Below are positions 1 through 45,227 of a DNA stretch of 45,266 nt, piece by piece; position 1 is the stretch's first letter, and the number at the start of each line of letters is the position of its first letter. The notes beneath the pieces were generated by a model. That model worked only from the letters and a program-made list of their open reading frames with translations. It did not search any database and had not been told where the DNA came from. The stretch is from the IMG/VR virus record IMGVR_UViG_2718217897_000001, positions 1 to 45,266 of that record. One strand, written 5' to 3'. The DNA comes from a virus. Lineage: Duplodnaviria; Heunggongvirae; Uroviricota; Caudoviricetes. A program made the translations under genes and the position numbers.

Positions 1-897
1 TCATTTTAATACCTCTTTGTTTACTGGGGTTAATATCTGAGATGGTAGTTCTGAAAGATTCTCTTGTTCAAGTATATGTTGAAAGCTTTTATTCATCATT
101 ATGATGTTAAAAATCTCATTTACTATTAGTAGGTTGGTTTTTATGAATTTTGAGTTGTTATAAACAGATTTATGTTCAGCGATACTATTTTCATAAAGCT
201 CAATCAACTCCTCTGCAGTCATCCTTTTTGATGGTTTGTGATAATAAAATCCGGCTGCTTTTGCACCTTTATTTCCAACTGTTCTTTGATTTAGAATGTG
301 TTTTATCTTTATAATGTCCCGACTTTTTATTAATTTTTTATCATATGCTTCGGTAAGAATATCTTGTGCTTCCTCAGTTTCACATCTTGCAAATTGCACT
401 GCGAGATACAGAGGCAAATTACCCCGTTCGACTGCTGAGAGAAGTTTATGCTCTCCCTTATCAAGTAGCATATTAATACTGCTCACCCAGTTCGATGAAT
501 ATCCAGTAATCTCACTTATTTCGGAGTCTGAAAGTCCTCTGATTTTCATGTCTTTAATCACCTGTAATAACTCATTAGAACGTGGTCTTCTCCTTGCAAT
601 GTTTTCAACTAAACTCATAACGTAAGCATCTTCTTCTGATACATCTCTTATAATTGCTGGAATAATAGTTTCACCTAATGCAACGAGAGCCTCTATTCTC
701 CCTTGACCACAAATTAAAGCATATTTGAAATCGCCTTCATCAATAGCTCTTACGCTTATAGGCTTGCTTAATCCTCTTTTTTTTATGCTTTCCTTTATTT
801 CTTCATGCACTACCTTATTTCTTGTTCGTGGGTTAAGAAATTTTATTTTTGCAATCTCAATTTGAATTATTGGGAATTCATTTTTTTCAGGCAGCAT
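1..897 (-). CDS. ParB-like protein (ParB/Srx N-terminal domain followed by HTH)
   Basis: Complete 298-aa ORF with stop at 1-3. Contains a GxxRxxA-type ParB box (ICGQGRIEAL) and a downstream HTH-like segment. Overlaps the upstream recombinase gene by 11 nt, so likely co-transcribed. AT-rich by eye. Confidence 0.55.
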   Translation of the reverse strand: MLPEKNEFPIIQIEIAKIKFLNPRTRNKVVHEEIKESIKKRGLSKPISVRAIDEGDFKYALICGQGRIEALVALGETIIPAIIRDVSEEDAYVMSLVENIARRRPRSNELLQVIKDMKIRGLSDSEISEITGYSSNWVSSINMLLDKGEHKLLSAVERGNLPLYLAVQFARCETEEAQDILTEAYDKKLIKSRDIIKIKHILNQRTVGNKGAKAAGFYYHKPSKRMTAEELIELYENSIAEHKSVYNNSKFIKTNLLIVNEIFNIIMMNKSFQHILEQENLSELPSQILTPVNKEVLK

Positions 898-2443
898 ATA
901 GTTCCCTCACTTTCATGCGAGTAATAATTTGTAGAAGTTTATCAAGATTATCAAATCTATAGAGATCTAATCGAATGTTGTTTGTTTCCGTCATGCACAT
1001 TTTATTATATTCGTTTTCAATCTTTGGTATGATATAAAAATCAAGAGGTGAAATATTTTGTGAATTCATTCGTATAACAATTGTTATGTCTGCTTTCTGT
1101 GAGTTATCAAACCGGACTTTCCATCTAAGTTTACCTGATTTCATATGTATGCATTTAGTAACAAGGACGGAAATTAAAAACTCATCATTGATGTAAAGCA
1201 TTGGGGCATATTTATACTCGTCTATATGACAGTTGCTTTTTAAAATTTCACCCTTAAAATCCTCAATTATCTCTGAGTAAAATGATCTTAGTGCTTCATT
1301 TATTTTGAGATAGCTGTAATCATGTTCTGGCTTATAACCAATCAAAGTATATGCTCTTAAAAGACCACCAAATCGGGTTCTATAAACAGAAGATGAAGGG
1401 CCTGTATCATCTTCATCAATGATAAAGCCTGATAGTTTTCCATTAGATTCTAATTTTTGTTTTAGTTTTTCTAATAGATCTTCATTAGTCAAATGAATGG
1501 ATCGGAGCTGAATTATTTCTTGAGCTTTATTGTATTTTTTCTTTGAAATAATAGGTTTATATGCCTTGTCACATCTAACCCATTCATGTTTGGGGTTTTT
1601 TACAAGCCTACTTTTTAATTTAGATGAGGTTTTGTTATATATGTTGTTTCCAATATATTTTTCATTTGTCAAAATTTGATGTATTTTTGCACGAGTCCAT
1701 AATGTACCATTTTCTGCAGGTATGTTCTGTTCATTTAATCTCTCAGCAATAATGAATTCTGGGACGTTATTATCTATAAAGAGATCATATATTCTATTTA
1801 CAATTTTTATTTCATTTTTTGGTCCCGGAATTAATATTACCCTATCTGTTTGAATACTCTTTCTTTTGCGGAAACTCAATATTTCTTTAGCTATGCCATT
1901 TTCGTCTACTAAAAGACGTCTCAGCCCATAACCAGCCATACCGCCTTGATGATAACCAAGCTTTATTAAATTTACTTGCCCTATAAATACCTTTTCAGAT
2001 AGATTCCTGCTGTGATATGCAGCACTAGATCTTTTTATATTCAGTATAACAGAGGACTCTAAAGGGAAATCTTTAGTGGGTATAGGTTCGGAACAATATA
2101 TAAGATCTACACCATTTCTCTCAAATAGAAAGGAATAATATGCCGCTTCATCACTATTTTGAAAACGACCAAAACGGCTCACATCATAAAATAATACAGC
2201 CTGTATATCTATTTTCTTTTGTTCTACATCGCTAAGTAACTGCTGCAAAGAATGCCTGCCTACGATACTGACTCCGCTCTTACCTGAATCATCGTAGGTA
2301 TAAGCGATTTCCATATTGTTCTTTTCAGCATAATCTTTGATATATTCGGACTGATTATGTAAAGAATATTGCTGATGGTCGGTAGACATCCTCAAGTACT
2401 GCGCGACCCTAACTCTATGATTTTTGTCATTTTCGCTAGCCAT
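887..2443 (-). CDS. large serine recombinase (resolvase-type catalytic domain plus recombinase domain)
   Basis: 518-aa ORF. N-terminus has the resolvase signature (YLRMSTDHQ with catalytic Ser, later DVSRFGR). Long C-terminal extension typical of large serine recombinases. AT-rich codon usage. Confidence 0.7.
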   Translation of the reverse strand: MASENDKNHRVRVAQYLRMSTDHQQYSLHNQSEYIKDYAEKNNMEIAYTYDDSGKSGVSIVGRHSLQQLLSDVEQKKIDIQAVLFYDVSRFGRFQNSDEAAYYSFLFERNGVDLIYCSEPIPTKDFPLESSVILNIKRSSAAYHSRNLSEKVFIGQVNLIKLGYHQGGMAGYGLRRLLVDENGIAKEILSFRKRKSIQTDRVILIPGPKNEIKIVNRIYDLFIDNNVPEFIIAERLNEQNIPAENGTLWTRAKIHQILTNEKYIGNNIYNKTSSKLKSRLVKNPKHEWVRCDKAYKPIISKKKYNKAQEIIQLRSIHLTNEDLLEKLKQKLESNGKLSGFIIDEDDTGPSSSVYRTRFGGLLRAYTLIGYKPEHDYSYLKINEALRSFYSEIIEDFKGEILKSNCHIDEYKYAPMLYINDEFLISVLVTKCIHMKSGKLRWKVRFDNSQKADITIVIRMNSQNISPLDFYIIPKIENEYNKMCMTETNNIRLDLYRFDNLDKLLQIITRMKVRELYAA

Positions 2444-2725
2444 GCACGAAACCTCATGGATGATTCAATACAATGTAGTGGATAAAATTGATCAAATTTT
2501 AACCGAATTCAACTGTTTTATCATTGATTAGAGCGAATTTGGTAGATCTTCGAGGTGTATGATAATCGAGAAGAGATGTGAATTATTTAGCTGATATGAC
2601 CGACAGCTTTCGTTATGTGGACTCAATGTCCCCATTTGTAAATGGCTATGCTTAGTCCACATAGGTTAATGGTGTGATTATTAATTCTTTAACTAAATCA
2701 AGATAGTTAATCCATCATGGGAGAG

Positions 2726-3955
2726 TTATGCGGCAATAACTTTGCATTTTTGAGACGAAACATAGTCACTCCACCATTGCATGAGAACCACCCGTTCAGT
2801 GAGATACTCTGCACGATTGTAGGCTGCAATTATTTCATCTTTCTTCGAGTGGGCAAGGGCGGCTTCTAAGACATCAGTCCTAAACTTGCCAGACTCCTCA
2901 GCAGCCGTTCTAGCAATGGATCGCATACCGTGAGCTACAAGCTCACCTCCGAAACCCATACGGATTATGGCCGCATTAGCTGTTTGTTCATGCATGTGAT
3001 TGAGTGGAGCTTTGATACTGGGGAACACCCACTCTCTATGCCCGCTGATGACTTTCATTAAATCCAAAACTCGCAAAGCTTCTTTGCTCAGTGGAACTTT
3101 GTGAGGCTTCTTCATTTTCATAAACTCCGCCGGGATGTTCCACATGCCAGTTTCAATATCAATATCTGACCATCTTGTGCGAACAGCTTCACCTGGGCGA
3201 ACCCATGTGAGAAGTTGCCACTCAATCAGTAGCCTTGTTTCCAAACGGATAGAAGCATTGTTTAGAGCAACCAAGAAGCGAGGGAGTTCGGAAGGGGGTA
3301 ATGCTGGCATATTCTGTTTTTTTGGCTTGCTGAACCGTTGCCCCAGGTTGTCTGCCGGGTTGAATTCTATGAGTTCTTCTGTTGCTGCATAGCGGAAAAT
3401 TTCATTCAGGCGGGATATGATGCGGCGAAGTGTTTCAAGGACACCTCGTTTTTCTATGGGTTCTAAATGCTGTTTAAGCATTTTAGGGCGAATCTCCTTA
3501 ATTGGGGTATCACCCAATGTGGAAAAGATATTTCTCTCTAGGCTTCGCCAGATGTCGTTAGCATGATCTTGGGAGATGCCTGACGTTTTGACTTTCTCAT
3601 CAAGCCACTTCTTGGCTACTGCTTGAAATGTATGTTCCGTGGCATCTTTCAGTGCATTGGCTTTTTGGTTGTTATGAACTTGGGGGTCTATACCATTTGT
3701 AAGCAACGACAAGTATTCATCACGTAAAGCTCGTGCCTTCGCAAGTGTAAGGTGAGGATAGGTTCCTAAGCTCACCTTAGTTCGCTTTTTGGTCACAGGC
3801 ACTGCATATCTGAAATACCAATTTTTCTTCCCTCCCTTCGCCAGGGGAGCGATTCGCAACAGCAAACCATCGCCGTCAAAAAGGTTAACCTCTTTTTCGG
3901 CAGGTTTGGTGCTTTTGATTTCAGTGTCAGTGAGCTTCTTAGCGATTTTGGCCAT
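2726..3955 (-). CDS. intA: tyrosine integrase, P4/IntA (CP4-57) family
   Basis: Translation from MAKIAKKLTDTEIK resembles the N-terminus of E. coli IntA/SlpA, with C-terminal HGxRS and AYNR motifs. The ORF track extends to 4036, but the ATG at 3955 is the likelier start. Lies ~165 bp downstream of a displaced ssrA 3'-end copy, as intA does relative to ssrA in K-12. Confidence 0.8.
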   Translation of the reverse strand: MAKIAKKLTDTEIKSTKPAEKEVNLFDGDGLLLRIAPLAKGGKKNWYFRYAVPVTKKRTKVSLGTYPHLTLAKARALRDEYLSLLTNGIDPQVHNNQKANALKDATEHTFQAVAKKWLDEKVKTSGISQDHANDIWRSLERNIFSTLGDTPIKEIRPKMLKQHLEPIEKRGVLETLRRIISRLNEIFRYAATEELIEFNPADNLGQRFSKPKKQNMPALPPSELPRFLVALNNASIRLETRLLIEWQLLTWVRPGEAVRTRWSDIDIETGMWNIPAEFMKMKKPHKVPLSKEALRVLDLMKVISGHREWVFPSIKAPLNHMHEQTANAAIIRMGFGGELVAHGMRSIARTAAEESGKFRTDVLEAALAHSKKDEIIAAYNRAEYLTERVVLMQWWSDYVSSQKCKVIAA

Positions 3956-4052
3956 GTTTGGGACCCTCGATTTTAGGACCCATCTTCGTGGGTCCCATTC
4001 AGGGTGCCATAACTCGTAGTTCTCAGCAATTCTCACTAGACTACAATAGACG

Positions 4053-4086
4053 TAAAAAAGCCCGCAGAGCTTGTGCTGTGCGGGCT
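4053..4086 (-). terminator. rho-independent terminator downstream of the displaced ssrA 3' fragment
   Basis: Stem agcccgca / tgcgggct with an A-run on the plus strand, which is a U-run for a minus-strand transcript. Confidence 0.5.
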
Positions 4087-4121
4087 TAGTAGACTTTACT
4101 GAACTTCAGTACATCAATATT

Positions 4122-5007: not shown

Positions 5008-6180
5008 TTAATTATGATTATGCAAATGATTTATCGATGTAAAGTTATCATACTCTTTAAGATACGAACCATAGTGCCTGAAAAGCATCTCCGGCCCTTT
5101 ATGCCCCATTTGAGCTGCAAGCCAAAACAGGTTTGCTCCTCGGCTGATATGGCTGGTGGCGAATGTATGCCTGGTTTGATATGGGTTTCTGTAACGAATA
5201 CCTGCTTTTCGCAATGTTGGCACCCATGCTTTTTTCCTAATTGCATCAGCACTTGCCCAAGGCTTATTGGTCTTTGGATCTTCAAAGACAGTAGCATCCT
5301 TCATGAATGTAAATGGCTTCTGATTTATCAGCGCCAACATTGCCTCTTCTGTCAGTTCAACTTTCCGAGTACCTGCTTTTGTCTTTGTCCCTTTGATAAC
5401 ACCGACAACACTTGCGCTCTGGACATGGGCAGTTTTTCCAACAAAGTCGATATCACGCCATCGAAGGGCACATAATTCAGAACTACGCAGGCCTGTATGT
5501 ATAGCGAACCGGAACAGATTTTCCCATTGTTTGTTTCCGGCTGCTGCTAGTAATGCATCAACTTCTGCTGGTGATAGCGGATCAACTACGTAGCTGCTTT
5601 CTGCTTCTGACTTATCACTTTGGTAGCGCGAAGCTGTTACTAACGATACGGGGTTAATTTGAAGTACCCCATCGGTCACGGCTTCATCAAGTGCTGACCG
5701 CAGGAAAGATAACTGGTTGCGAATGGTTTTTAAGGTCGTTTTCTGGCTTTGAATCCACGCTTTCAGGGTTGCTGGTGTTAATTCACTTGCAGGGCAAATG
5801 TGAAGTGAGGCTAACGCACTACGGCATTTTTTATAACCACCGATCGTGGATGGTGAAAGTTTCCTCGTTTCGCAGATTTCAAGGTATTCGTCCAGGTACA
5901 TTTTTACCGTTTTGCCTGCAGCAGCATTACCAAAAATTTTCAAACGAGCAGAACGGGGAAAATATTCCGCATAAATGAATGTTCCCCTTTCGATCTTATT
6001 ATGAATTTCGCCGAGTGTGCGCTCAGCGTATTTAATGTTCTTTGGTGTTACTTCCAGATTGGAAAGAGGCTCACGACATTTAACTCCTTTGTAGGTGAAA
6101 GTTATATTGATCGTTTCGCCCTGGCGGTGTTTCCTGATTGTTACGCCGCGCGGTAGTTTGAGCAGTTTTGTCTGGCCCAT
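5008..6180 (-). CDS. int: phage tyrosine integrase
   Basis: 390 aa. C-terminal catalytic region has R...HxxR...Y-type motifs (YQTRHTFAT, GHKGPEMLFRHYGSY). Adjacent to attR and an excisionase gene. Confidence 0.85.
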   Translation of the reverse strand: MGQTKLLKLPRGVTIRKHRQGETINITFTYKGVKCREPLSNLEVTPKNIKYAERTLGEIHNKIERGTFIYAEYFPRSARLKIFGNAAAGKTVKMYLDEYLEICETRKLSPSTIGGYKKCRSALASLHICPASELTPATLKAWIQSQKTTLKTIRNQLSFLRSALDEAVTDGVLQINPVSLVTASRYQSDKSEAESSYVVDPLSPAEVDALLAAAGNKQWENLFRFAIHTGLRSSELCALRWRDIDFVGKTAHVQSASVVGVIKGTKTKAGTRKVELTEEAMLALINQKPFTFMKDATVFEDPKTNKPWASADAIRKKAWVPTLRKAGIRYRNPYQTRHTFATSHISRGANLFWLAAQMGHKGPEMLFRHYGSYLKEYDNFTSINHLHNHN

Positions 6181-6359
6181 TTTGCAACCTCACTAAGATC
6201 AATCCACCTCTCCTTAACGCCTTCAACCTTTAAAACCTGAACACCTTCACGCCAAACACCGCGCTGTACACGTTTGTTTATTGCTTCAGGAGTTTCGCCA
6301 GTTTCTTTGCAATAAGTTGAGATTGGAACACAATCGAGGTTCAGCATATGTTTCTCCAC
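6141..6359 (-). CDS. xis: excisionase-like DNA-binding protein
   Basis: 72-aa ORF immediately upstream of and overlapping int. Small basic winged-helix-like sequence. Confidence 0.5.
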   Translation of the reverse strand: MEKHMLNLDCVPISTYCKETGETPEAINKRVQRGVWREGVQVLKVEGVKERWIDLSEVAKWARQNCSNYRAA

Positions 6360-6406
6360 TTAGCCCGCTGCACACGGGCAGTAATATCAAATTCCAGTCC
6401 TGATAA

Positions 6407-6622
6407 TTAATTTTGTTCCCTGGTTGCTACCTGTTTTATTGGCCTGATGCTGTCCAGTAGCAGACGGCGACGCATGTTAGGTGCACCCCAACGGTAACCA
6501 GTCTTTTTGTCGTAGGATTCACAACGTCCGGCAACCCAGGACGTTTCAGTGGAATGTAATTTCATCCGCTTTTCACCGTCTCGGGTGATAACAATTCCTG
6601 TATGAGTTTTTATCACGCTCAT
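6407..6622 (-). CDS. hypothetical early protein
   Basis: 71-aa ORF, translationally coupled to the upstream gene (ATGA overlap at 6619-6622). Confidence 0.4.
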   Translation of the reverse strand: MSVIKTHTGIVITRDGEKRMKLHSTETSWVAGRCESYDKKTGYRWGAPNMRRRLLLDSIRPIKQVATREQN

Positions 6623-16439: not shown

Positions 16440-16802
16440 TTGTGGAGAAAGTTGATGCGTGATATGTATGAAGTGATGGATCGTTGGGGAGCTTGGGCTG
16501 CTTCAGACAATAGCGGAGTGGACTGGCAACCGGTAGCCGCTGGCTTCAAGGGGCTTTTACCTCATGGCAAAAAGTCCCGGATTCAGTGTGATGATGATGA
16601 GGGGCTCATGATCGATGGGTGCGTAGCTAGATTAAGAAAGTACAAACCAGAAGAGTATGAGTTAGTTATAGCCCATTTTGTGGTAGGGATTTCATTGCGA
16701 GCCATTGCTAAGAAGAGAAAGTGTTCGGATGGGACTATCAGGAAAGAGTTGCAAACATCGCTTGGTTTCATTGAAGGCATTGTTTGCACTCTTGCCTGTT
16801 AA
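16440..16802 (+). CDS. Q: late-gene antiterminator Q (QuuD-like)
   Basis: RWGAWAA, AAGFKGL, QCDDDE, GCVARL, CSDGTIRK motifs shared with E. coli QuuD. Start possibly at 16455. Confidence 0.8.
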   Translation: MWRKLMRDMYEVMDRWGAWAASDNSGVDWQPVAAGFKGLLPHGKKSRIQCDDDEGLMIDGCVARLRKYKPEEYELVIAHFVVGISLRAIAKKRKCSDGTIRKELQTSLGFIEGIVCTLAC

Positions 16803-16823: not shown

Positions 16824-17708
16824 TTATATTGGGCGCTTTGAATTCGATTTAAAGCGTCTTCCACTTATTCCAGAAACCCAAATGTCTTCCTCAAGAAAGT
16901 CAAGAAGGGCTTTTATTTCTTTTTTTGATGAAGGCATGACAATTTTCTCAACACCGCCAACTATTATGGTTTGTAAGGGGAAATTAACTTTAGCAGCTTC
17001 GGATTTAAACTTTGACATATTTTGGGGTGTTAGCATCCCAGTCTGATTTATTAGTGTTACTTTATTTCTTATCACTGTATCTGCAACGGATTTTAGATCA
17101 AAACCTTGGGGAGTAGAAAATACACTAAGTTGACTAAATGCATTAAGTTCTTGGTCAGTAGCAGCAGAAAAATAGGACGACATGTCAAAAATGCTTCTTA
17201 GATTAAAGAAACTCTTAAATCGTATTGTATCATTGATAATTATTGCAACTAGTTTATCATCAACATTAAAACCGATGCTATTAGCTTTACTAAAGGTAGT
17301 TTTGCTTGCAAAAAGCTTTCCAAAGAATGATTTTGAGGTATCTAAGATTTGTTTTTTGTTGAAAGTTTGTAGTGCAATAATATTGGGGTTTGCTGGCGCG
17401 TCAACACCAACAAATAATGCTTTAATATAACCAATATCAATTTGGCTAGGATCCCAGATAGGCACGGCGGTAGGCCTATTGACTGCGTCAATCAGGCGTG
17501 CAGAATCAGTAAAGTTTTGTATTTCAAAACACTCACTATGTTTTGGTGTATAACCGGCATAGAATGGTATCATATTGTTATGATGACTTTCAAAATATTG
17601 ACGCTGTTGTTGGAAAATGGCCGTAACAGAAGTACTTGCTGTTGCATCAAGTTCGACTCTAACAATTCTCGTTGCAATTGTATTATCTATTACTGCAAAA
17701 AGTGCCAT
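16824..17708 (-). CDS. hypothetical 294-aa protein, second gene of the opposite-strand cargo operon
   Basis: Starts 5 bp after the stop of the upstream membrane-protein gene, with an AAAGGA Shine-Dalgarno. AT-rich. No family recognised. Confidence 0.6.
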   Translation of the reverse strand: MALFAVIDNTIATRIVRVELDATASTSVTAIFQQQRQYFESHHNNMIPFYAGYTPKHSECFEIQNFTDSARLIDAVNRPTAVPIWDPSQIDIGYIKALFVGVDAPANPNIIALQTFNKKQILDTSKSFFGKLFASKTTFSKANSIGFNVDDKLVAIIINDTIRFKSFFNLRSIFDMSSYFSAATDQELNAFSQLSVFSTPQGFDLKSVADTVIRNKVTLINQTGMLTPQNMSKFKSEAAKVNFPLQTIIVGGVEKIVMPSSKKEIKALLDFLEEDIWVSGISGRRFKSNSKRPI

Positions 17709-17713
17709 GGTTA

Positions 17714-18235
17714 TTATCCTTTAACATGTAGAAATGTGTAGTCTGTTAATTGAATAACTGTAAATTTGATATCTTTAATATCAGTAATAACTGATTTAGA
17801 AATCAATACAAAACCTACGCCGGTGTCATCTTCAGCTTCGTAAAATTTATAACCGATAAGTGACAATACTGGGTTAAAGTTATAGTTCTCGGAAAAGCTG
17901 ATGTAAAATAACAATGATAAATAAAAGAATAACGCATATGCTTTATTTTCAGCAATAGAATCTGTTCCTAGGAGAGGGAATAAATAGCTTAAGAAATAAT
18001 TAGTTACTTCTTTGTTAGCGGGAGAAACTGAACTAATATTTTTTGTCAGAGGTTCAAGTTGTTTCTCAGCATATTGAATCAGGCCTATTGCTAATAACCA
18101 ACTTGCTATGCCAACGCATAAGCTATATTGCATCAGCCAAACCGTATCTTTTACATATCCAATAAAAAATAGAGTTGCGCAAACAGGTGCAATTGAGCTG
18201 GCTGTTAATAATAAGCGTGCTAATTTGTTCATCAT
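17714..18235 (-). CDS. hypothetical multi-pass membrane protein (3-4 predicted TM helices), first gene of the cargo operon
   Basis: 173 aa. Hydrophobic segments at about residues 8-28, 35-55, 78-92 and 99-115. ATG at 18235 with an AAAGGA Shine-Dalgarno. AT-rich. Confidence 0.6.
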   Translation of the reverse strand: MMNKLARLLLTASSIAPVCATLFFIGYVKDTVWLMQYSLCVGIASWLLAIGLIQYAEKQLEPLTKNISSVSPANKEVTNYFLSYLFPLLGTDSIAENKAYALFFYLSLLFYISFSENYNFNPVLSLIGYKFYEAEDDTGVGFVLISKSVITDIKDIKFTVIQLTDYTFLHVKG

Positions 18236-18392: not shown

Positions 18393-18418
18393 AAACCCGC
18401 CGTCGAGCGGGTTTTGTC
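18393..18418 (+). terminator. tR'-like terminator after the late promoter (Q antitermination target)
   Basis: aacccgc ... gcgggtt stem followed by a T-run, between Q and the holin gene. Confidence 0.5.
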
Positions 18419-19749: not shown

Positions 19750-19882
19750 TACACCTGTACCGTTTATACCCAACCCACTGACGTATGGTGCAAGTCTTGA
19801 TTTGAATGTAAGTTTGTTATCCGCGTTGGCTCAATGTAATAGGGATAAGTCAGATATCAGAATCATTGATAATCAAAATTGA
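19634..19882 (+). CDS. Rz1: o-spanin lipoprotein (Rz1), +1 frame, overlapping and extending beyond Rz
   Basis: Lipobox LLTGC after ATG at 19634. Pro-rich mature region. Confidence 0.55.
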   Translation: MMIVLYALCLLPLLTGCGSTRTVYVSIPKTPLPVSLTSDTPVPFIPNPLTYGASLDLNVSLLSALAQCNRDKSDIRIIDNQN

Positions 19883-20086
19883 TGTATATTTTTATCGTCA
19901 TGTAGATAACGAACAAGGTATTCCTCTGATACGTATTCGTTGAATACAGGTCATGGGTAGGCATTGCAATATCGCTTCGAAATTATCTGTGATAATGCTC
20001 TTAATTTTGAATGTATGTATTTGGGAAAAGAGATAAAGTAATAGTCTAATTAATGGAGATATCCACAAAACACAAAAGGGATTATT

Positions 20087-20593
20087 ATGAGACCAGATCA
20101 ATTTTTCTATCCAGATACTTTTACCTTTAATTCATCCACCTATTATGGTCAACGTGACTCATCTAAAGGCCGATTGTATATTCCTATTGAAAGTGACTTA
20201 TGCCCATTTAATATCGGCGATATCATTGTGCAAAAAATGGTCGACAGGGAAAGGCTATTTGAAGTGCTTGATTACGAGGTGCAAATTAGTCTCGAGGTTG
20301 GTTGCCCTGGCTACTCACATTTGGCGGTATTGATAGTGAAGGCATTGGATGTAAAAGAGAAGCCGAAGCAGATTACGACCCATTTGACGTTTAACGGTGC
20401 TATTAATGCTGGTGGTGATTTTCAAGCCGGTAATGATAATTCGATCACAAAGAATATAACCATTCAACAACTACATGATGCTATAGAGCATTGCAATGAT
20501 CCAGAGGTTAAAAGCCTTTGGCAAAAGCTATTGGAAAATCCGACGTTTGCTTCAATTGCTTCAATATTGGCAAAAAGTGCTTTAGGACAGTAA
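20087..20593 (+). CDS. hypothetical protein (self-contained cargo gene)
   Basis: 168-aa ORF after a ~200-bp AT-rich spacer, with its own Shine-Dalgarno, followed by a hairpin terminator. Confidence 0.5.
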   Translation: MRPDQFFYPDTFTFNSSTYYGQRDSSKGRLYIPIESDLCPFNIGDIIVQKMVDRERLFEVLDYEVQISLEVGCPGYSHLAVLIVKALDVKEKPKQITTHLTFNGAINAGGDFQAGNDNSITKNITIQQLHDAIEHCNDPEVKSLWQKLLENPTFASIASILAKSALGQ

Positions 20594-20600
20594 TTCATCA

Positions 20601-20626
20601 AGCCCCATTCAATATGGGGTTTTTAT
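20601..20626 (+). terminator. rho-independent terminator
   Basis: ccccat tcaat atgggg stem-loop followed by TTTTT. Confidence 0.6.
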
Positions 20627-20650
20627 GCTTATTACAAAGAGTTTTCTTCA

Positions 20651-21001
20651 ATGCCACCACGAATCCCAAAATCCTGCCGCGTTCGCGGCTGCCGCCATAC
20701 CACTACTGACCCGTCAGGCTACTGCGAAAGCCACAAAAGCGAAGGCTGGAAGCAATACAAGCCAGGACAATCCCGTCATCAGCGCGGCTACGGTTCGAAA
20801 TGGGATGCTATCCGTGAACGTGTACTGAAACGTGACAAAGGTTTATGTCAGTTATGTCTGCGTGCCGGTGTGGTGCGTGAAGCGAAAACCGTTGACCACA
20901 TCATCCCTAAAGCGCATGGCGGCACTGATGCCGACTGTAATCTGCAGAGTCTGTGCTGGCCGTGTCATAAGGCGAAGACGGCCCGTGAACGGTTGAAGTG
21001 A
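20651..21001 (+). CDS. HNH endonuclease (terminase-associated)
   Basis: Cys/His zinc-binding pattern (CQLC ... DHIIPKAHGG ... CWPCH). Immediately upstream of the terminase genes. Confidence 0.8.
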   Translation: MPPRIPKSCRVRGCRHTTTDPSGYCESHKSEGWKQYKPGQSRHQRGYGSKWDAIRERVLKRDKGLCQLCLRAGVVREAKTVDHIIPKAHGGTDADCNLQSLCWPCHKAKTARERLK

Positions 21002-21027
21002 TAATGATTCTCAACTTCCTGAGGGGA

Positions 21028-21088
21028 GGGGCGGGTCAAATCCCTGCGGCCTGACGTCTTCCGGACTGCCCGCCCCATCGTTTTTTTA
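21028..21088 (+). other. GC-rich hairpin or candidate cos/packaging region between HNH and terS
   Basis: ggggcggg ... cccgcccc inverted repeat followed by a T-run. Confidence 0.25.
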
Positions 21089-21126
21089 TACCCGCGAAAA
21101 ATGAAATTTAACCAGGAGTGCCGCAT

Positions 21127-21621
21127 ATGGCTGGAACGGCGGGGCGTTCCGGGTGTCGCCCCAAGCCAACGGCGCGCAAGGCGCTGGCCGGAAACCCCGG
21201 CAAGCGAGCCCTGAACAAAGATGAACCTGTTTTTACGCCCATCAAAGGTGTTGAGCCACCGGAGTGGTTCGCTGAAGAAGAGCTCCCTCTCGCCACGATC
21301 ATGTGGCAACTGACAACCAAAGAACTCTGCGGTCAGGGCCTGCTGTGCGTGACTGACCTCGCAGTGCTTGAGCGGTGGTGCGTGGCCTATGAGTTCTGGC
21401 GACGTGCTGTGAAAAATATTGCCAGACAGGGCAACACCATCACCGGTGCAATGGGCGGCATGGTCAAAAATCCGGAGCTGACCGCCAAAAAAGAACAGGA
21501 GTCCGAGATGAGCAGTACGGGGGCAATGCTCGGACTCGACCCCAGCAGCCGCCAGCGTCTGATTGGCCTGGCGGGGCAGAAGAAAGCCACTAACCCGTTT
21601 CTGAAAATTATCGAATCATGA
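21127..21621 (+). CDS. terminase small subunit
   Basis: ATG at 21127 after AGGAG. Sits between HNH and the large terminase. Confidence 0.65.
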
Positions 21622-38578: not shown

Positions 38579-39019
38579 ATGAATCGTTTTGTGTTCAGTC
38601 CATCTGAGTCCCGTTTTTATGCCATCGAGTGGCAGGCTGATTATGTTGATAATAATTGTTGGCCACATGATGCCATTAACGTTAGTGACAGCATTTATTA
38701 TGAGTTTTCCGGCACTCCCCCTACAGGTAAGCAACTTATAACTTTAAATAACATGCCAGCATGGGGTGATATTCCTCCACCTACACGAGAAGAATTAATT
38801 GTCGCTGCTGATGTGGAGAAGCAAAAAAGAATAGATTTAGCCAATGATTACATGAACGGTAAGCAATGGCCTGGTAAAGCAGCTATTGGTCGTCTGAAAG
38901 GTGAGGAACTGGCACAATATAATTTGTGGCTGGATTATCTGGACGCACTGGAGCTGGTCGATACCGCCAGTGCGCCAGATATTGAATGGCCTACGCCTCC
39001 GGCAGTTCAGGCCAGATGA
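38579..39019 (+). CDS. tail fibre assembly protein
   Basis: 146 aa, conserved C-terminal WPTPP-type motif. Confidence 0.7.
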   Translation: MNRFVFSPSESRFYAIEWQADYVDNNCWPHDAINVSDSIYYEFSGTPPTGKQLITLNNMPAWGDIPPPTREELIVAADVEKQKRIDLANDYMNGKQWPGKAAIGRLKGEELAQYNLWLDYLDALELVDTASAPDIEWPTPPAVQAR

Positions 39020-39593
39020 CATCCGGCGCGGTGCTGGTATCTGTTGCCGTCACCGCGTCAATGTAATCCAGCACAGTGTTAAGGCTGGTTGTTTCTGCCT
39101 GCGTCAGTTTACGTCCGGCCTGCAATTTCAGCTGAATCAGACTGATTGAAGCCATTGCAGTATCAATCAGTGACTGGCGCTGTGCTTCTGCTGCATCTAC
39201 TGCGGCGCTATGCTGTGCTTCGGTATCCGTCACCCATTTCTCACCATCCCATTTATCGTATGGCGTTAACGGGGCGATAGTGGTTGTATTATCAGGGTAA
39301 TCACCCGGAACTGTGATTTCTTTTGATTCTCCTGTTTCGGTGCTAAAGACGATTTCACCGCGATGGTCTGGCACATATTCCCATGAGTTAAAATCTACAG
39401 ATCGGCAGATTGCATAACCAGCTTTGTATGTGCCAGGGGCATCTAAACAGGAATATGCAGGGATACCGACACCAACGGCAAGATATTCAGTTGATGTGGA
39501 AATATATTCCCGTGTTTCGCCATCATAGTTATAGACGGTAATATTCCCCGCCTTTGTAGCAATAAACTCGCTATTTAATACAGCGTTATCCAT
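38991..39593 (-). CDS. alternative tail fibre assembly protein (inverted set)
   Basis: 200 aa, C-terminal VIWPELP motif. Confidence 0.7.
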   Translation of the reverse strand: MDNAVLNSEFIATKAGNITVYNYDGETREYISTSTEYLAVGVGIPAYSCLDAPGTYKAGYAICRSVDFNSWEYVPDHRGEIVFSTETGESKEITVPGDYPDNTTTIAPLTPYDKWDGEKWVTDTEAQHSAAVDAAEAQRQSLIDTAMASISLIQLKLQAGRKLTQAETTSLNTVLDYIDAVTATDTSTAPDVIWPELPEA

Positions 39594-40093
39594 TATGCAG
39601 CCCTCACGATATAGTTAAATGCAATATTCCGTGGACGGGTTTCATTTATCCCATATGCTGTTGTTCTCTGATTCCCGACAAAATATCCATTTGGATTAGA
39701 AGATACAGAATAATCATCAAAATCAAGTGGGCTATCAGCACCCGGCGTCAGGCTTGCAATATATCCTCTTCCCATAACTTCTGATGCTGGTATTTCTTTT
39801 GTACGATAATCACTAACTCTGAAGAGCTGCCCTTGGTGGGTGTGTGATTCCACTCCTCCATTCTGAAGACTTAGCAAGGCACGTACAGCATCAATACCAC
39901 GCCCGTCATCCCAGCCACGAATAAACTCACCACGTAAATCAGGCAATTTATTTGTCGGATAAGCCTTTGCCAGTTCCGGGTATTCTTCAGCAGAAAAAGC
40001 GGCACCGTTGCATTTCAGCCAGCCTGTTGGCGGAGTGGCTGAAGGCCACGGAACAGGCACCCCAACCGGTAATGCAGAGCCTTCTCCCAAACC
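39593..40093 (-). CDS. alternative tail fibre C-terminal segment, silent in this orientation
   Basis: ORF runs up to the right crossover site and has no independent start. Contains the receptor-binding-tip-like PVGVPVPWP ... GWLKCNG motif. The NVGLGEGS junction is compatible with fusion after ENLGL of the constant part. Confidence 0.65.
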   Translation of the reverse strand, partial: GLGEGSALPVGVPVPWPSATPPTGWLKCNGAAFSAEEYPELAKAYPTNKLPDLRGEFIRGWDDGRGIDAVRALLSLQNGGVESHTHQGQLFRVSDYRTKEIPASEVMGRGYIASLTPGADSPLDFDDYSVSSNPNGYFVGNQRTTAYGINETRPRNIAFNYIVRAA

Positions 40094-40106
40094 AACGTTT
40101 ATGAAA
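40081..40106. repeat. invertase crossover site, right
   Basis: ttctcccaaacc-aa-cgtttatgaaa, in inverted orientation relative to the left site. Confidence 0.55.
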
Positions 40107-40161
40107 ATGCAGAAATAACGAGCAAATGGCATCATTCCTGCTTTTGTCAGAGGGATCCACT

Positions 40162-40716
40162 ATGCTTATTGGCTATGTACGCGTATCAACAAATGACCAG
40201 AACACCGATCTACAACGTAATGCGTTGAACTGTGCAGGATGTGAGCTGATTTTTGAAGACAAGATAAGCGGTACAAAGTCCGACAGACCAGGACTGAAAA
40301 AGCTGCTCAGGACATTATCGGCAGGTGACACGCTGGTGGTCTGGAAACTGGACCGACTGGGACGCAGTATGCGGCATCTTGTCGTGCTGGTGGAGGAGTT
40401 GCGCGAACGAGGCATCAACTTTCGTAGTCTGACGGATTCAATTGATACCAGTACCCCAATGGGGCGCTTTTTCTTTCATGTGATGGGTGCCCTGGCTGAA
40501 ATGGAGCGTGAACTGATTGTTGAACGAACAAAAGCTGGACTGGAAGCAGCTCGCGCACAGGGACGAATTGGTGGACGTCGCCCCAAACTTACACCAGAAC
40601 AATGGGAGCAGGCCGGACGATTAATTGCATCAGGCGTTCCTCGCCAGAAGGTGGCGATCATCTATGATGTTGGTATATCGACACTGTATAAGAAGTTTCC
40701 GGTCGGAGATAAATGA
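40162..40716 (+). CDS. pin: Pin/Gin/Hin-family serine DNA invertase
   Basis: MLIGYVRVSTNDQ N-terminus with catalytic Ser. 184 aa from the ATG at 40162. C-terminal HTH. Confidence 0.9.
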   Translation: MLIGYVRVSTNDQNTDLQRNALNCAGCELIFEDKISGTKSDRPGLKKLLRTLSAGDTLVVWKLDRLGRSMRHLVVLVEELRERGINFRSLTDSIDTSTPMGRFFFHVMGALAEMERELIVERTKAGLEAARAQGRIGGRRPKLTPEQWEQAGRLIASGVPRQKVAIIYDVGISTLYKKFPVGDK

Positions 40717-40776: not shown

Positions 40777-41646
<870 letters not shown>

Positions 41647-41953: not shown

Positions 41954-43387
41954 ATGTCTGAATTTGAAGTGTTGGCACAGCATCTGCTGAAGGAAGCCGA
42001 GGCGGAAGAAAAGCTGCGACAGGAAAATGATAAAAAGCTTATCGAGAAAGTGCTGGAAATCTATGATCAGAAGTATGTGGCTGAATTACTGAGAAAAGTC
42101 GGAAAAAATGAGTGGAGCCGTGAAACCATTAACCGCTGGATTAATGGCAAGTGTTTACCAAAATCGTTGACGTCAGTAGAAGAGTCTCTTCTGCGTAAGA
42201 TGCTACCAGAACCACCTGCAAACCATCCGGAATATGCTTTCCGCTTCATTGACTTATTTGCTGGAATTGGAGGGATACGAAAAGGTTTTGAGGCTATTGG
42301 AGGCCAGTGTGTTTTTACCAGTGAATGGAATAAAGATGCTGTGCGTACATACAAGGCCAACTGGTTTAACGATGAACAGGTGCATAAATTCAATCTCGAT
42401 ATTCGGGAAGTCACGTTGAGTGATAAAACCGATGTATTGGAAACGGATGCTTATGCATATATTGATGAGCATGTGCCGGATCATGATGTGCTTCTTGCGG
42501 GGTTCCCGTGCCAGCCATTTAGTCTTGCTGGTGTTAGTAAGAAAAACTCACTTGGCCGTGCGCATGGTTTTGAATGTGAAGCACAAGGAACACTTTTTTT
42601 TGACGTGGCACGTATTATACGAGCAAAAAAACCGGCAATTTTTGTGCTGGAAAATGTCAAAAATCTGAAGAGCCATGATAAGGGTAAAACTTTCAAAGTC
42701 ATTATGGAGACCCTTGACGAGCTGGGCTACGAAGTTGCCGATGCTGCAGAAATGGGAAAAAACGATCCAAAGATTATCGATGGGAAGCATTTTTTGCCTC
42801 AGCATCGTGAACGCATTGTTCTGGTCGGATTTAGACGAGATCTGAATATTCACAAGGGGTTTACCTTGCGTGATATCAGTCGTTTTTATCCGGAACACCG
42901 CCCATCATTTGGTGAATTGCTGGAGCCTGTAGTCGACAGTAAATATATACTTACGCCAAAACTATGGGAGTACCTTTATAACTACGCCAAAAAGCATGCA
43001 GCCAAGGGGAATGGTTTTGGCTTTGGGTTGGTCAATCCTGAGAATAAGGAAAGCATTGCACGCACACTTTCTGCCAGATATCACAAAGACGGATCAGAAA
43101 TTCTTATTGATCGTGGTTGGGATATGGCAACGGGAGAGGCTGACTTTATGAATGAGAGTAATCAGGCTCGTCGACCACGCAGGCTGACTCCCCGAGAGTG
43201 CGCACGCCTTATGGGATTTGAAAAACCTGGAGGGAAACCATTCCGTATTCCGGTTTCAGATACTCAGTCATATCGGCAGTTCGGTAACTCAGTTGTGGTG
43301 CCAGTATTTGAAGCTGTTGCCAGACTTCTGGAACCCTATATCCTCAAAGCTGTTTCTGCTGATGCTGGTAAGACTGGGCAGCCTTGA
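41954..43387 (+). CDS. DNA cytosine-5 methyltransferase, Dcm/M.EcoRII-like (CCWGG specificity inferred)
   Basis: Motif [18 protein letters not shown], motif [13 protein letters not shown], motif [11 protein letters not shown], motif [12 protein letters not shown]. Near-collinear with E. coli Dcm as recalled. ATG at 41954 after GGAGGA; the track ORF starts at 41912. Confidence 0.85.
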
Positions 43388-43421: not shown

Positions 43422-44636
43422 CTATGATAGTTCAGCGTAAAGCTCTATCAGCTCAGTAATGAATGCTCCGAGCGTTATTAATTCTTCTCTAACTGCTTCT
43501 GGGTATTTTTTATGTAAAGTTGATGGTACAACGAGTCTGACACCCGCATCTTTCATTTCTCGGTATTGTGCTGAAGAAACACCTTCTTGCAGTGTAAATA
43601 AATGTACCTGATGGATTTTATCTGCTTCATTCAGTATCTGACGCCAGCGATCTTTGCAGGTGGTCTTTACTGCCAGCATACGTAAGTTTTCTACAGGAAA
43701 TTCAACGTTATGATATGCCTCTGCTGAAGGAAACAGGAAATCTGGTTTTTTATTACCTTCAGTAACTGCCTGAGTGGAGAAATGCCGTAGTCCGTGCTCG
43801 ATAAAAAGCTTCTCTAGGTGAAGTTCAAGTGATTTGCCTGCCCTTGATTTACGTCGATTACTGACAGAGTTGGCTAATGCAATAAACTCATCTACAGAAT
43901 CGAATCCTTTCTTAATAATATCAAGAACATGTAATTCCTCGACGAGTAGAAAAATATCATACTCGACACGCCGACGGTCAATCAGTTGCTCATCTGGATC
44001 CTTGGAGTTTTTAGCATAATGGCCAGCAGCATATTGAATAATTTCGTTTCCAGAAGGAAAACGCTTCTTCCAGTCTTCAGGAATAACATATTTATGATTT
44101 ACTGGAGTTTGCTGAAGAGATAATCCGCCCAAAATTTGTCCGGCAGGGCCGGAAATTAGGGTTCCAGGTATGATTTCGCCAATAGCAGACTCGATGATAT
44201 CCTCTTCATCGGGATTGACGCAGACCCATATATCTACCTCGGAACAGTCAGTGTTCTGTTCGTTTAACCTGAAAGCAAGAATTGTGAGAGCTCCTGTATT
44301 TTCAGGGTTCTGTAATGGACTTCCTCTCCCCCAGCGCGTAATTCTTTTTTCGTTTCGGGTCTTACCAAAATAACGGTTGTTGTAATAAATTGCGCGTGCT
44401 TGGGTATCTGGGCAATCATGGGATGATACATGCGCAGTAAGGAAGACTGAAGGGTTCAGTTCGCGAGTATGATTGATAGATGGAAAAAGCTTTTCAACGA
44501 TATTTGAGGGGATATAAAGTCCGACCTGATGGCCACCTGTTGCGCCAGTGTCGTTTGCAGAAAGGCGTTTGATGTAGATAAAGTAATTCCCGCTTGCGAT
44601 ATCAAGCAGCCAGTTATGAAAAACCGACATATACAT
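43422..44636 (-). CDS. EcoRII-like type IIE restriction endonuclease
   Basis: 404 aa, convergent with a Dcm-like methyltransferase, which is the known EcoRII R-M arrangement. Sequence resembles EcoRII as recalled. Confidence 0.7.
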   Translation of the reverse strand: MYMSVFHNWLLDIASGNYFIYIKRLSANDTGATGGHQVGLYIPSNIVEKLFPSINHTRELNPSVFLTAHVSSHDCPDTQARAIYYNNRYFGKTRNEKRITRWGRGSPLQNPENTGALTILAFRLNEQNTDCSEVDIWVCVNPDEEDIIESAIGEIIPGTLISGPAGQILGGLSLQQTPVNHKYVIPEDWKKRFPSGNEIIQYAAGHYAKNSKDPDEQLIDRRRVEYDIFLLVEELHVLDIIKKGFDSVDEFIALANSVSNRRKSRAGKSLELHLEKLFIEHGLRHFSTQAVTEGNKKPDFLFPSAEAYHNVEFPVENLRMLAVKTTCKDRWRQILNEADKIHQVHLFTLQEGVSSAQYREMKDAGVRLVVPSTLHKKYPEAVREELITLGAFITELIELYAELS

Positions 44637-44864: not shown

Positions 44865-44900
44865 TGGTGGAGCTGGCGGGAGTTGAACCCGCGTCCGAAA
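44865..44900 (-). repeat. attachment-site repeat within the ssrA 3' end (attL)
   Basis: Matches 4122-4157. Confidence 0.85.
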
Positions 44901-45227
44901 TTCCTACATCCTCGGTACTACATGCTTAGTCAGTCTTTATATTCGCTTGCCAGCTGCGGACGGACACGCCACTAACAAACTAGCCTGATTAAGTTTTAAC
45001 GCTTCAACCCCAGGCAGGGCTTCCACGCGATCTCTTTTGGGTTTGACCTCTCTTGATCCCCGTCCTAAGAGCGGAGGCTAGGGAGAGAGGGCTCTAAGCA
45101 GGTTATTAAGCTGCTAAAGCGTAGTTTTCGTCGTTTGCGACTATTTTTTGCGGCTTTTTACGAGGCCAACCGCCCCTCGGCATGCACCTTGGGTTTCGCA
45201 AATCCCGTCGAATCCAGAATCAGCCCC
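44865..45227 (-). ncRNA. ssrA: tmRNA (SsrA), intact, 363 nt
   Basis: Reverse complement begins GGGGCTGATTCTGGATTCGACGGG and ends CCCGCCAGCTCCACCA. Encodes the ANDENYALAA tag region (gcaaacgacgaaaactacgctttagcagcttaa). Confidence 0.97.

Follow-up and report, generated by a model that had tools for sequence, protein, structure and literature searches.

Single-gene immune systems of the Tai type, which escape both PADLOC and DefenseFinder, have been located by experiment at two kinds of site: for the most part 'upstream of the packaging module' where the carrier is a lambdoid phage, phi80 for example, and in the accessory region adjoining pri where it is a phage-inducible chromosomal island (PICI) (He et al. 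2024, PMC11364771). A working amyloid-signalling abortive-infection system, Bab/Agp (BASS11), has likewise been described from hot spots of E. coli prophages (Ibarlosa et al., bioRxiv 10.1101/2024.11.07.622273), and BASS motifs are described in multicellular filamentous bacteria as pairs, at the C-terminus of a Bell effector and at the N-terminus of an NLR protein; the central signature common to RHIM, PP and BASS3 is G-phi-Q-phi-G (Dyrka et al. 2020). Here we analyse a 168-amino-acid (aa) open reading frame (ORF) on a 45,266-nucleotide stretch of viral DNA (IMG/VR record IMGVR_UViG_2718217897_000001, positions 1 to 45,266, hereafter the window), whose e14/HK97-like lambdoid prophage is complete, has a contractile tail and is integrated beside ssrA. 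Genes of this ORF's family occupy the same two kinds of slot as the Tai genes, and our best explanation, to which we give somewhat less than even credence, is a composite one, namely a moron that encodes an anti-phage protein acting through the assembly of a short motif.

The boundaries of the locus emerge from comparison with four sibling E. coli prophages that share its lysis and packaging genes and whose flanks are ~88-96% identical. Homology to all four ends at 19841-19857, within the 3' end of Rz1, and restarts at 20637-20652, at the start of an HNH gene, with sharp breakpoints that enclose the following features:

~19858..20636, no strand assigned: whole accessory cassette (leader, ORF and terminator), ~780 bp, low GC, without counterpart in the sibling prophages
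19858..20086, + strand: AT-rich non-coding leader, 69% A+T
20076..20081, + strand: Shine-Dalgarno sequence AAGGGA, 5 nt 5' of the ATG
20087..20593, + strand: 168-aa ORF with an ATG start, RefSeq WP_021519683.1 'hypothetical protein', phrog_5789
20600..20626, + strand: terminator-like hairpin with a 9-bp stem, a 5-nt loop and a T run, from the terminator scan

An earlier sequence-only reading of the window had described an ORF with a good Shine-Dalgarno sequence, preceded by an AT-rich spacer of ~200 bp and followed by a hairpin terminator and the HNH/terminase genes, and each of these elements is present where it had been placed. The ATG is the earliest start past the in-frame stop and lies behind a 204-bp spacer that begins at the end of Rz1 (lysC) at 19882, while the hairpin, AAGCCCCAT-tcaat-ATGGGGTTT followed by the T run, has a folding energy of -15.8 kcal/mol (z = -3.6 against shuffles). 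Downstream of it come the HNH gene (20651-21001; Pfam HNH, E 5e-15) and then the terminase genes. GC content is 0.32-0.41 across 19800-20700 versus 0.47-0.59 in the flanks. In the sibling prophages the same slot is empty (L008, where 26 bp separate lysC from HNH) or holds iss, which is homologous to bor and lies on the minus strand (L010), one DUF6236 gene (L011) or two hypothetical genes on the minus strand (L009). The cassette itself is found in 28 of 5,426 complete E. coli genomes, 2,969 of which match some part of a 2.7-kb lysozyme-to-terminase query. The left recombination junction (19841-19882) falls within the last 8-14 codons of Rz1 (lysC), so that the C-terminus of Rz1 varies with the cargo behind it. 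Near the right junction, two cassette-bearing IMG/VR contigs carry a second HNH-start region, equivalent to window 20637-21219, ~1.7 kb downstream of the first (L035 6922-7504, L038 5172-5523), a pattern that points to a duplication within the packaging region or an insertion there.

As reportedly defined by Juhala and Hendrix in 2000, a moron is an accessory transcription unit in the late region of a phage, and it is recognised by its presence or absence between homologous genomes, a deviant base composition, a terminator of its own, and a promoter of its own with expression from the repressed prophage. The cassette is present in some homologous phage genomes and absent from others, its base composition deviates, as does that of homologues in other elements, and at the sequence level it has its own terminator. 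We consider it very probable that a moron, in the form of a mobile accessory cassette with one gene, occupies 19858-20636 in the classical lambda bor/iss slot between lysis and packaging genes. The moron claim of the sequence-only reading thus holds as far as slot variability, low GC and homologues at unrelated positions or on the opposite strand go, and the independent promoter that it had included is no more than plausible. Both the slot and the moron logic are textbook, and as a bor-slot moron the gene would be ordinary.

The gene had also been called an orphan, a description overturned by its end-to-end match to phrog_5789 (E 1e-79), by 22 close homologues (49-99% identity) in E. coli, Serratia and metagenomes, and by the 80 relatives at E<1e-3 that a profile search covering all of 1.84 billion cluster representatives recovered. 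A module-only search of a 5.8-billion-protein set returned mostly short fragments and no informative name. One match of the family, to the 4,708-aa P0025 (E 1e-27), was rejected as an artefact in which ~35 matches of 0-6 bits are summed over an adhesin repeat.

Close homologues lie directly 3' of the spanin genes in the lambdoid phages L004, L005, L007, L041 and L042, which carry three different holin/endolysin/spanin sets; in L005 the intergenic gap before the family gene is 92 bp. Other placements differ in position and strand: a Serratia prophage has a lone opposite-strand homologue between an SLT virion protein and a primase, L043 has one behind the tail genes, and L044 has one between portal and terminase, again on the opposite strand. 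Distant full-length relatives are found in Pluralibacter, Proteus, Kluyvera, Enterobacter, Rosenbergiella and Photorhabdus and in the record Klebsiella phage P12620-1, and in these satellites of seven genera they are lone, opposite-strand, low-GC genes with an HK97-type capsid/S78 protease/portal block on one side and an AAA_25 replication gene on the other. This arrangement matches the published layout of capsid-forming PICIs (cf-PICIs), which are described as lacking lysis and tail genes. The family also extends to chromosomal, non-phage contexts and to environmental bacteria such as Sulfurimonas, Kiritimatiellales and Pokkaliibacter. At the non-phage Pokkaliibacter locus (L017), the PADLOC defence candidate PDC-S21 adjoins the family gene; neighbours at the other non-phage loci are mostly without defence annotation, and the coiled-coil matches at L019 are unspecific.

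Three of these loci deserve separate description. The Klebsiella record (L027; PQ569648.1, 'Klebsiella phage P12620-1', 97543-105980) is a 106-kb entry in which the capsid/protease/portal block, the family gene and the replication gene occur together, and it may represent a satellite co-assembled with, or embedded in, a phage record. In a satellite-like element of Enterobacter soli (L015), a 254-aa paralogue with a degenerate motif and helices (VQFGTSNN...) at 5159-5923 (+) lies directly 5' of the family gene at 5998-6510. In the IMG/VR lambdoid contig L042, each of the two cargo slots holds a different paralogue with the module: a 163-aa protein with another N-domain, the motif NVQVGNHN and a hydrophobic tail in the Q-holin slot (1123-1614, -), and a barrel-type family member after Rz (3501-4004, +). 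The two L042 proteins could be a motif-sharing pair, and the L015 and L042 loci together hint at pairing.

The sequence-only reading, which saw no recognisable motifs in the protein, had called for a structure prediction and a remote homology search. We ran AlphaFold2 twice, with 19 and 40 sequences and with concordant results, and the predicted protein comprises three parts:

20111..20350, + strand: N-terminal six-stranded beta-barrel (aa 9-88), a putative sensor/binding domain; AlphaFold2, predicted local distance difference test (pLDDT) 80-92
20387..20458, + strand: conserved segment (aa 101-124) with the core FQAGNDN (aa 112-118, nt 20420-20440); conservation, pLDDT <50
20462..20584, + strand: C-terminal three-helix region (aa 126-166) with a small-residue-rich hydrophobic/amphipathic tail (NPTFASIASILAKSALGQ); AlphaFold2, pLDDT ~60-76

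Residues 90-122 have no predicted structure in the monomer model (pLDDT <50 in both runs, the deeper alignment included). Column identity in the close family is nonetheless 0.79 in the unstructured segment and 0.83 in the first two helices versus 0.65 in the barrel, with no variation at all at Q113, A114, G115 or N118. The barrel resembles head-closure/stopper (neck) structures (2kz4, 8vhx_F, 8fwe_AM), with PilZ and FMN-binding split barrels scoring nearly equal; at the sequence level, kinship with this phage's own head-closure protein was rejected, as the two share no similarity. Foldseek against BFVD yielded no specific match, Pfam and NCBIfam scans of the window protein nothing usable, and a PDB sequence search with the close-family profile designed helical repeats only. 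By eye and by hydropathy, the N-terminus MRPDQFFYPDTF shows no signal peptide, lipobox or transmembrane segment, and the protein is cytoplasmic-looking.

Across the wider family, the segment and the helical tail form a constant module behind interchangeable N-terminal domains, which include the barrel, a winged-helix/DUF2513-like domain, a zinc ribbon and others. The module consensus reads NIGS(I/V)SGxxVQ(V/I)GNxNxQxxNIT(I/L)QELVEKVAxSxDPEAKSLLKKLLENSTVASI(I/V)GAGASALLGLL, and its last 16-17 residues are rich in G, A and S and hydrophobic, with a hydropathy (KD17) of 1.5-2.0 in sampled wider-family members. The absence of recognisable motifs stands with respect to Pfam, NCBIfam and PADLOC, while the family as a whole displays a three-part architecture with a RHIM-like segment.

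That resemblance resides in a wider-family core, (V/I)Q(V/I)GxxN, flanked by N, G and S residues. When 24,736 Pfam models were run against 36 family members at a permissive E-value, RHIM (PF12721; gathering threshold 20 bits) was the family matched by the largest number of members (6 of 36, best E 0.0015), and the matches sit on the motif: residues 107-119 of P0033 (18.5 bits), 98-109 of P0055 (17.3 bits) and 108-117 of P0051. In a second library, a 31-column motif profile built from 37 members and searched against 177,635 PDB sequences (E<=10) gave seven hits, five of which are RHIM fibril cores, of RIPK1 (E 0.013) or RIPK3 (E 0.6-0.9), aligned on IQIG/VQVG and the next N; with a 70-column module profile, RIPK1 is still the top match. 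The remote homology search thus delivered both a wider family and RHIM matches, all of the latter sub-threshold. The core in the window clade is (F/L/I)QAGxxN, and the window protein reads G-D-F-Q-A-G at the signature. FQAGNDNSITKNITIQQL is the unambiguous positional homologue of VQVGNNNSQISNITLQNL, which makes the window copy a diverged version of the RHIM-like segment and not a RHIM.

A scan of the leader offers a single putative start signal:

19988..19996, + strand: candidate extended -10 element TGtGATAAT, putative

In the homologous cassettes L004, L005 and L007, a TGn(G/A)AT(T/C)AT element stands 36-42 nt 5' of each ATG. Alignment of the leaders upstream of the homologous cassettes yields no conserved block, and hence no promoter or RNA element common to them, and no Rfam family matches the window's leader. 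Hairpins are found 3' of the stop codon in the homologues L004, L012, L014, L015 and L002 as well, and they are not homologous to one another. The terminator scan predicts no terminator between Rz1 and the ORF, so that read-through of the late operon must express the ORF too. In lambda biology, Q-modified polymerase reads through genes and hairpins after induction.

We propose the following model. Transcription in the lysogen would start at a weak promoter within the AT-rich leader and end at the hairpin, and in lytic growth Q-modified polymerase would cross gene and hairpin to reach the packaging genes. The product would serve the lysogen in phage-phage conflict, as an abortive-infection or assembly-interference protein: its variable N-domain would recognise a phage component, recognition would drive self-assembly through the Q-x-G-x-x-N segment, which is RHIM-like in the wider family, and assembly would deploy the C-terminal helices as the output, probably on the inner membrane, or in an oligomer. 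The parts of this model differ in strength. An anti-phage role strikes us as an even call, and a motif-driven assembly switch is doubtful. Less likely again is the most specific version, in which the family is a single-polypeptide amyloid-switch immune protein (a beta-barrel or another sensor domain, a RHIM-like phi-Q-phi-G-x-x-N segment and a short, membrane-active helical tail) carried as one-gene cargo by lambdoid prophages and cf-PICI-like satellites in Enterobacterales and further unicellular bacteria; here a phage part, perhaps the head-tail connector mimicked by the barrel, would nucleate motif assembly and lead to abortive infection or to a block of virion assembly.

The evidence for the mechanism is computational, partly sub-threshold, and weakest for the window's own clade, and several results weigh against the model. 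All RHIM scores lie below the gathering threshold (best 18.5 versus 20 bits) and come from the wider family only; the window protein has no Pfam RHIM match at E<=1, nor does the close-family profile find one in the PDB. The full G-phi-Q-phi-G signature occurs in 3 of 98 members, the upstream glycine being displaced by two residues, and the strict pattern [VIL]Q[VIL]GxxN is present in 44 of 76 wider-family members and in none of the 22 of the close clade. Known systems are pairs, whereas the 45-kb window holds no second motif-bearing ORF (the next six-frame match scores 3.7 bits), and no Bell/HeLo-type domain is among the Pfam matches, which leaves the C-terminal helical tail as the effector-like part. 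The tail of the window's E. coli/Serratia clade has a hydropathy (KD17) of 0.7-1.2 and a lysine within it, weakly hydrophobic values that make membrane insertion doubtful. No sigma-70 site on the + strand of the spacer is picked up by the consensus scan, so that the label 'promoter-like' given to it by the sequence-only reading holds for its AT-rich composition alone, and at least one extended -10 element like the sole one detected is expected by chance in 18% of leader shuffles. Since the gene points the same way as the late operon and no terminator precedes it, its product would also be made while the phage itself grows lytically, and a defence protein would then face an autoimmunity problem. 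Finally, every named family member is 'hypothetical' in all sources, and the window protein matches no family of PADLOC-DB 2.0 (5,027 models) at E<=1.

Several other readings account for part of these data. The same strand, the position directly behind the spanin genes in the window and in several lambdoid contigs, the lack of a predicted terminator between Rz1 and the ORF, the 92-bp gap in L005 and a barrel resembling head-tail stoppers would all suit a late-operon accessory protein of the phage, acting in lysis timing, packaging or head-tail joining, transcribed by pR' read-through only and no cargo at all. We nevertheless hold this to be improbable: siblings with the same lysis and packaging genes have the slot empty or filled with unrelated genes, the gene is restricted to 28 of the 5,426 genomes and deviates in base composition, homologues lie on the opposite strand or in cf-PICI-type satellites published as lacking lysis and tail genes, and the phage already has a head-closure protein of its own that shows no sequence similarity. 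A lysis component in particular would not be expected to be absent from most sibling cassettes and present in non-lysis contexts, and the family has no lysis annotation in Pfam or PHROG. The slot is also that of iss and bor, which would fit a lysogenic-conversion factor that alters the host surface (serum resistance, adhesion), phenotypes for which the sequence-only reading had suggested assays; the lack of a visible signal peptide, lipobox or transmembrane segment at the N-terminus (read by eye), together with relatives in environmental Sulfurimonas, Kiritimatiellales and Pokkaliibacter, makes such a role very unlikely indeed.

Two further alternatives concern the motif. Anti-defence genes usually lie in early phage regions, whereas this one sits in late-region cargo slots; the combination of a constant helical tail with swapped N-domains looks like an effector plus sensor rather than a bare decoy, and the family is found in chromosomal, non-phage contexts too. 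We accordingly rate as quite unlikely, if a little less so than the late-operon protein above, a counter-defence decoy that would shield the phage or satellite by joining the amyloid-type motif of an abortive-infection system of the host in a common assembly and so blocking that system, even though the motif resembles RHIM, E. coli does have amyloid-motif abortive-infection systems, phages and satellites carry the gene and read-through would express it in lytic growth. Viral RHIM decoys are established in animals, as in herpesvirus M45 and ICP6 (review PMC13506858). The RHIM resemblance might, on the other hand, be convergence or chance, the cargo acting otherwise, as a small toxin, an exclusion protein or a barrel- or helix-based protein-binding inhibitor. 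Short G/N/Q-rich motifs converge easily, the scores are all sub-threshold, the window clade lacks the canonical core, and neither AlphaFold run gives the segment any structure; yet few parts of the protein are as well conserved as that segment, for which no structure is predicted, and RHIM comes out on top in two independent libraries. We regard this as rather unlikely, and of the alternatives it is the one we take most seriously. Should the motif prove a red herring, the gene would remain a good candidate, as a new single-gene means of defence or counter-defence.

For the preferred reading, a moron with an anti-phage protein that acts through motif assembly, the surroundings of the gene are also of interest. 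A complete Kiwa anti-phage system fills the prophage's other cargo slot, which extends from Q to the holin: behind the Q antiterminator (16455-16802) lie KwaB (16824-17708, PADLOC E 2e-150) and KwaA (17714-18235, PADLOC E 2e-83), an AT-rich cargo on the - strand. In phage vB_EcoM-689R6, which holds a copy of the locus at 99.8% identity, the Q-holin slot contains hypothetical genes and a DNA adenine methylase instead. A strong terminator-like hairpin, AAACCCGCC...GGCGGGTTT followed by Ts, is located at 18393-18414 (+) just 5' of the holin and may be tR' of the late operon; if it is, Kiwa sits between Q and the late promoter/terminator region, and late transcription may start downstream.

The right end of the prophage, where further cargo lies, adjoins the ssrA tmRNA (44865-45227, -) and includes a type II restriction endonuclease (43422-44630, -), an m5C methyltransferase (41954-43387, +) and a GIY-YIG protein (40777-41550, -), and next to these a pinE invertase (40162-40716, +) adjoins oppositely oriented tail-fibre/assembly gene sets (38579-40135) in what looks like an invertible host-range switch. 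Positions 4122-45266 of the window are 99.97% identical to E. coli GPEC1035. The remaining positions, 1-4121, are unmatched in the GPEC1035 locus and encode a ParB-like protein (4-897, -), a large serine recombinase (887-2443, -) and a tyrosine integrase (2726-4036, -), whereas GPEC1035 has at that end a P4-like island with Psu, DUF262 and HEPN genes; a different integrated element abuts the prophage in the source strain.

Set against the described systems, the gene shares features with each. Lambda bor and E. coli iss use the same slot between Rz/Rz1 and packaging and are single-gene cassettes present or absent among siblings, but they encode minus-strand exported lipoproteins that affect serum survival, whereas the family gene is on the plus strand, cytoplasmic-looking and unrelated in sequence. 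The resemblance of the barrel to head-closure/stopper proteins does not extend to sequence similarity with the head-closure protein of the phage itself. TaiEcA, phi80 orf63, is single-gene immune cargo of the same slots, undetected by PADLOC and DefenseFinder; it differs in its length of 204 aa, its orientation opposite to the late operon and its paired anti-Tai gene, and it has no detectable sequence relationship. Membership of the family in Tai was rejected at hhalign probabilities of 1.9% (A1) and 0.3% (A4). What the comparison with Tai does bring out is an undescribed family (~80 clusters, all 'hypothetical') in two experimentally validated immune hot spots, and one that is easily testable, since the gene is 0.5 kb long, Q113, G115, N118 and the C-tail stand out as its key residues, and panels of coliphages exist.

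At the level of the motif, the wider family, with its (V/I)Q(V/I)GxxN, is closest to RHIM (RIPK1/RIPK3, PF12721), which gives the best Pfam and PDB matches, aligned on the core tetrad, and to the related fungal PP and bacterial BASS3; it departs from RHIM in its sub-threshold scores, its displaced upstream glycine and the FQAG of the window clade. If the assembly model is right, RHIM-type signalling would be extended from animals, fungi and filamentous bacteria to phage-borne cargo. The nearest functional parallel would then be Bab/Agp, which is also prophage-borne and combines a short conserved G/N/Q-rich motif, there in control of cell death, with a small helical membrane-targeting part. In Bab/Agp, this arrangement is divided between two genes, the effector bearing the motif at its C-terminus and a 1094-aa sensor bearing it at its N-terminus, whereas the family gene is one gene, with the motif in mid-protein, no Bell domain and no partner in the window; it would constitute a one-gene version of that two-gene system, a one-gene amyloid-type switch in enterobacterial phage conflicts.

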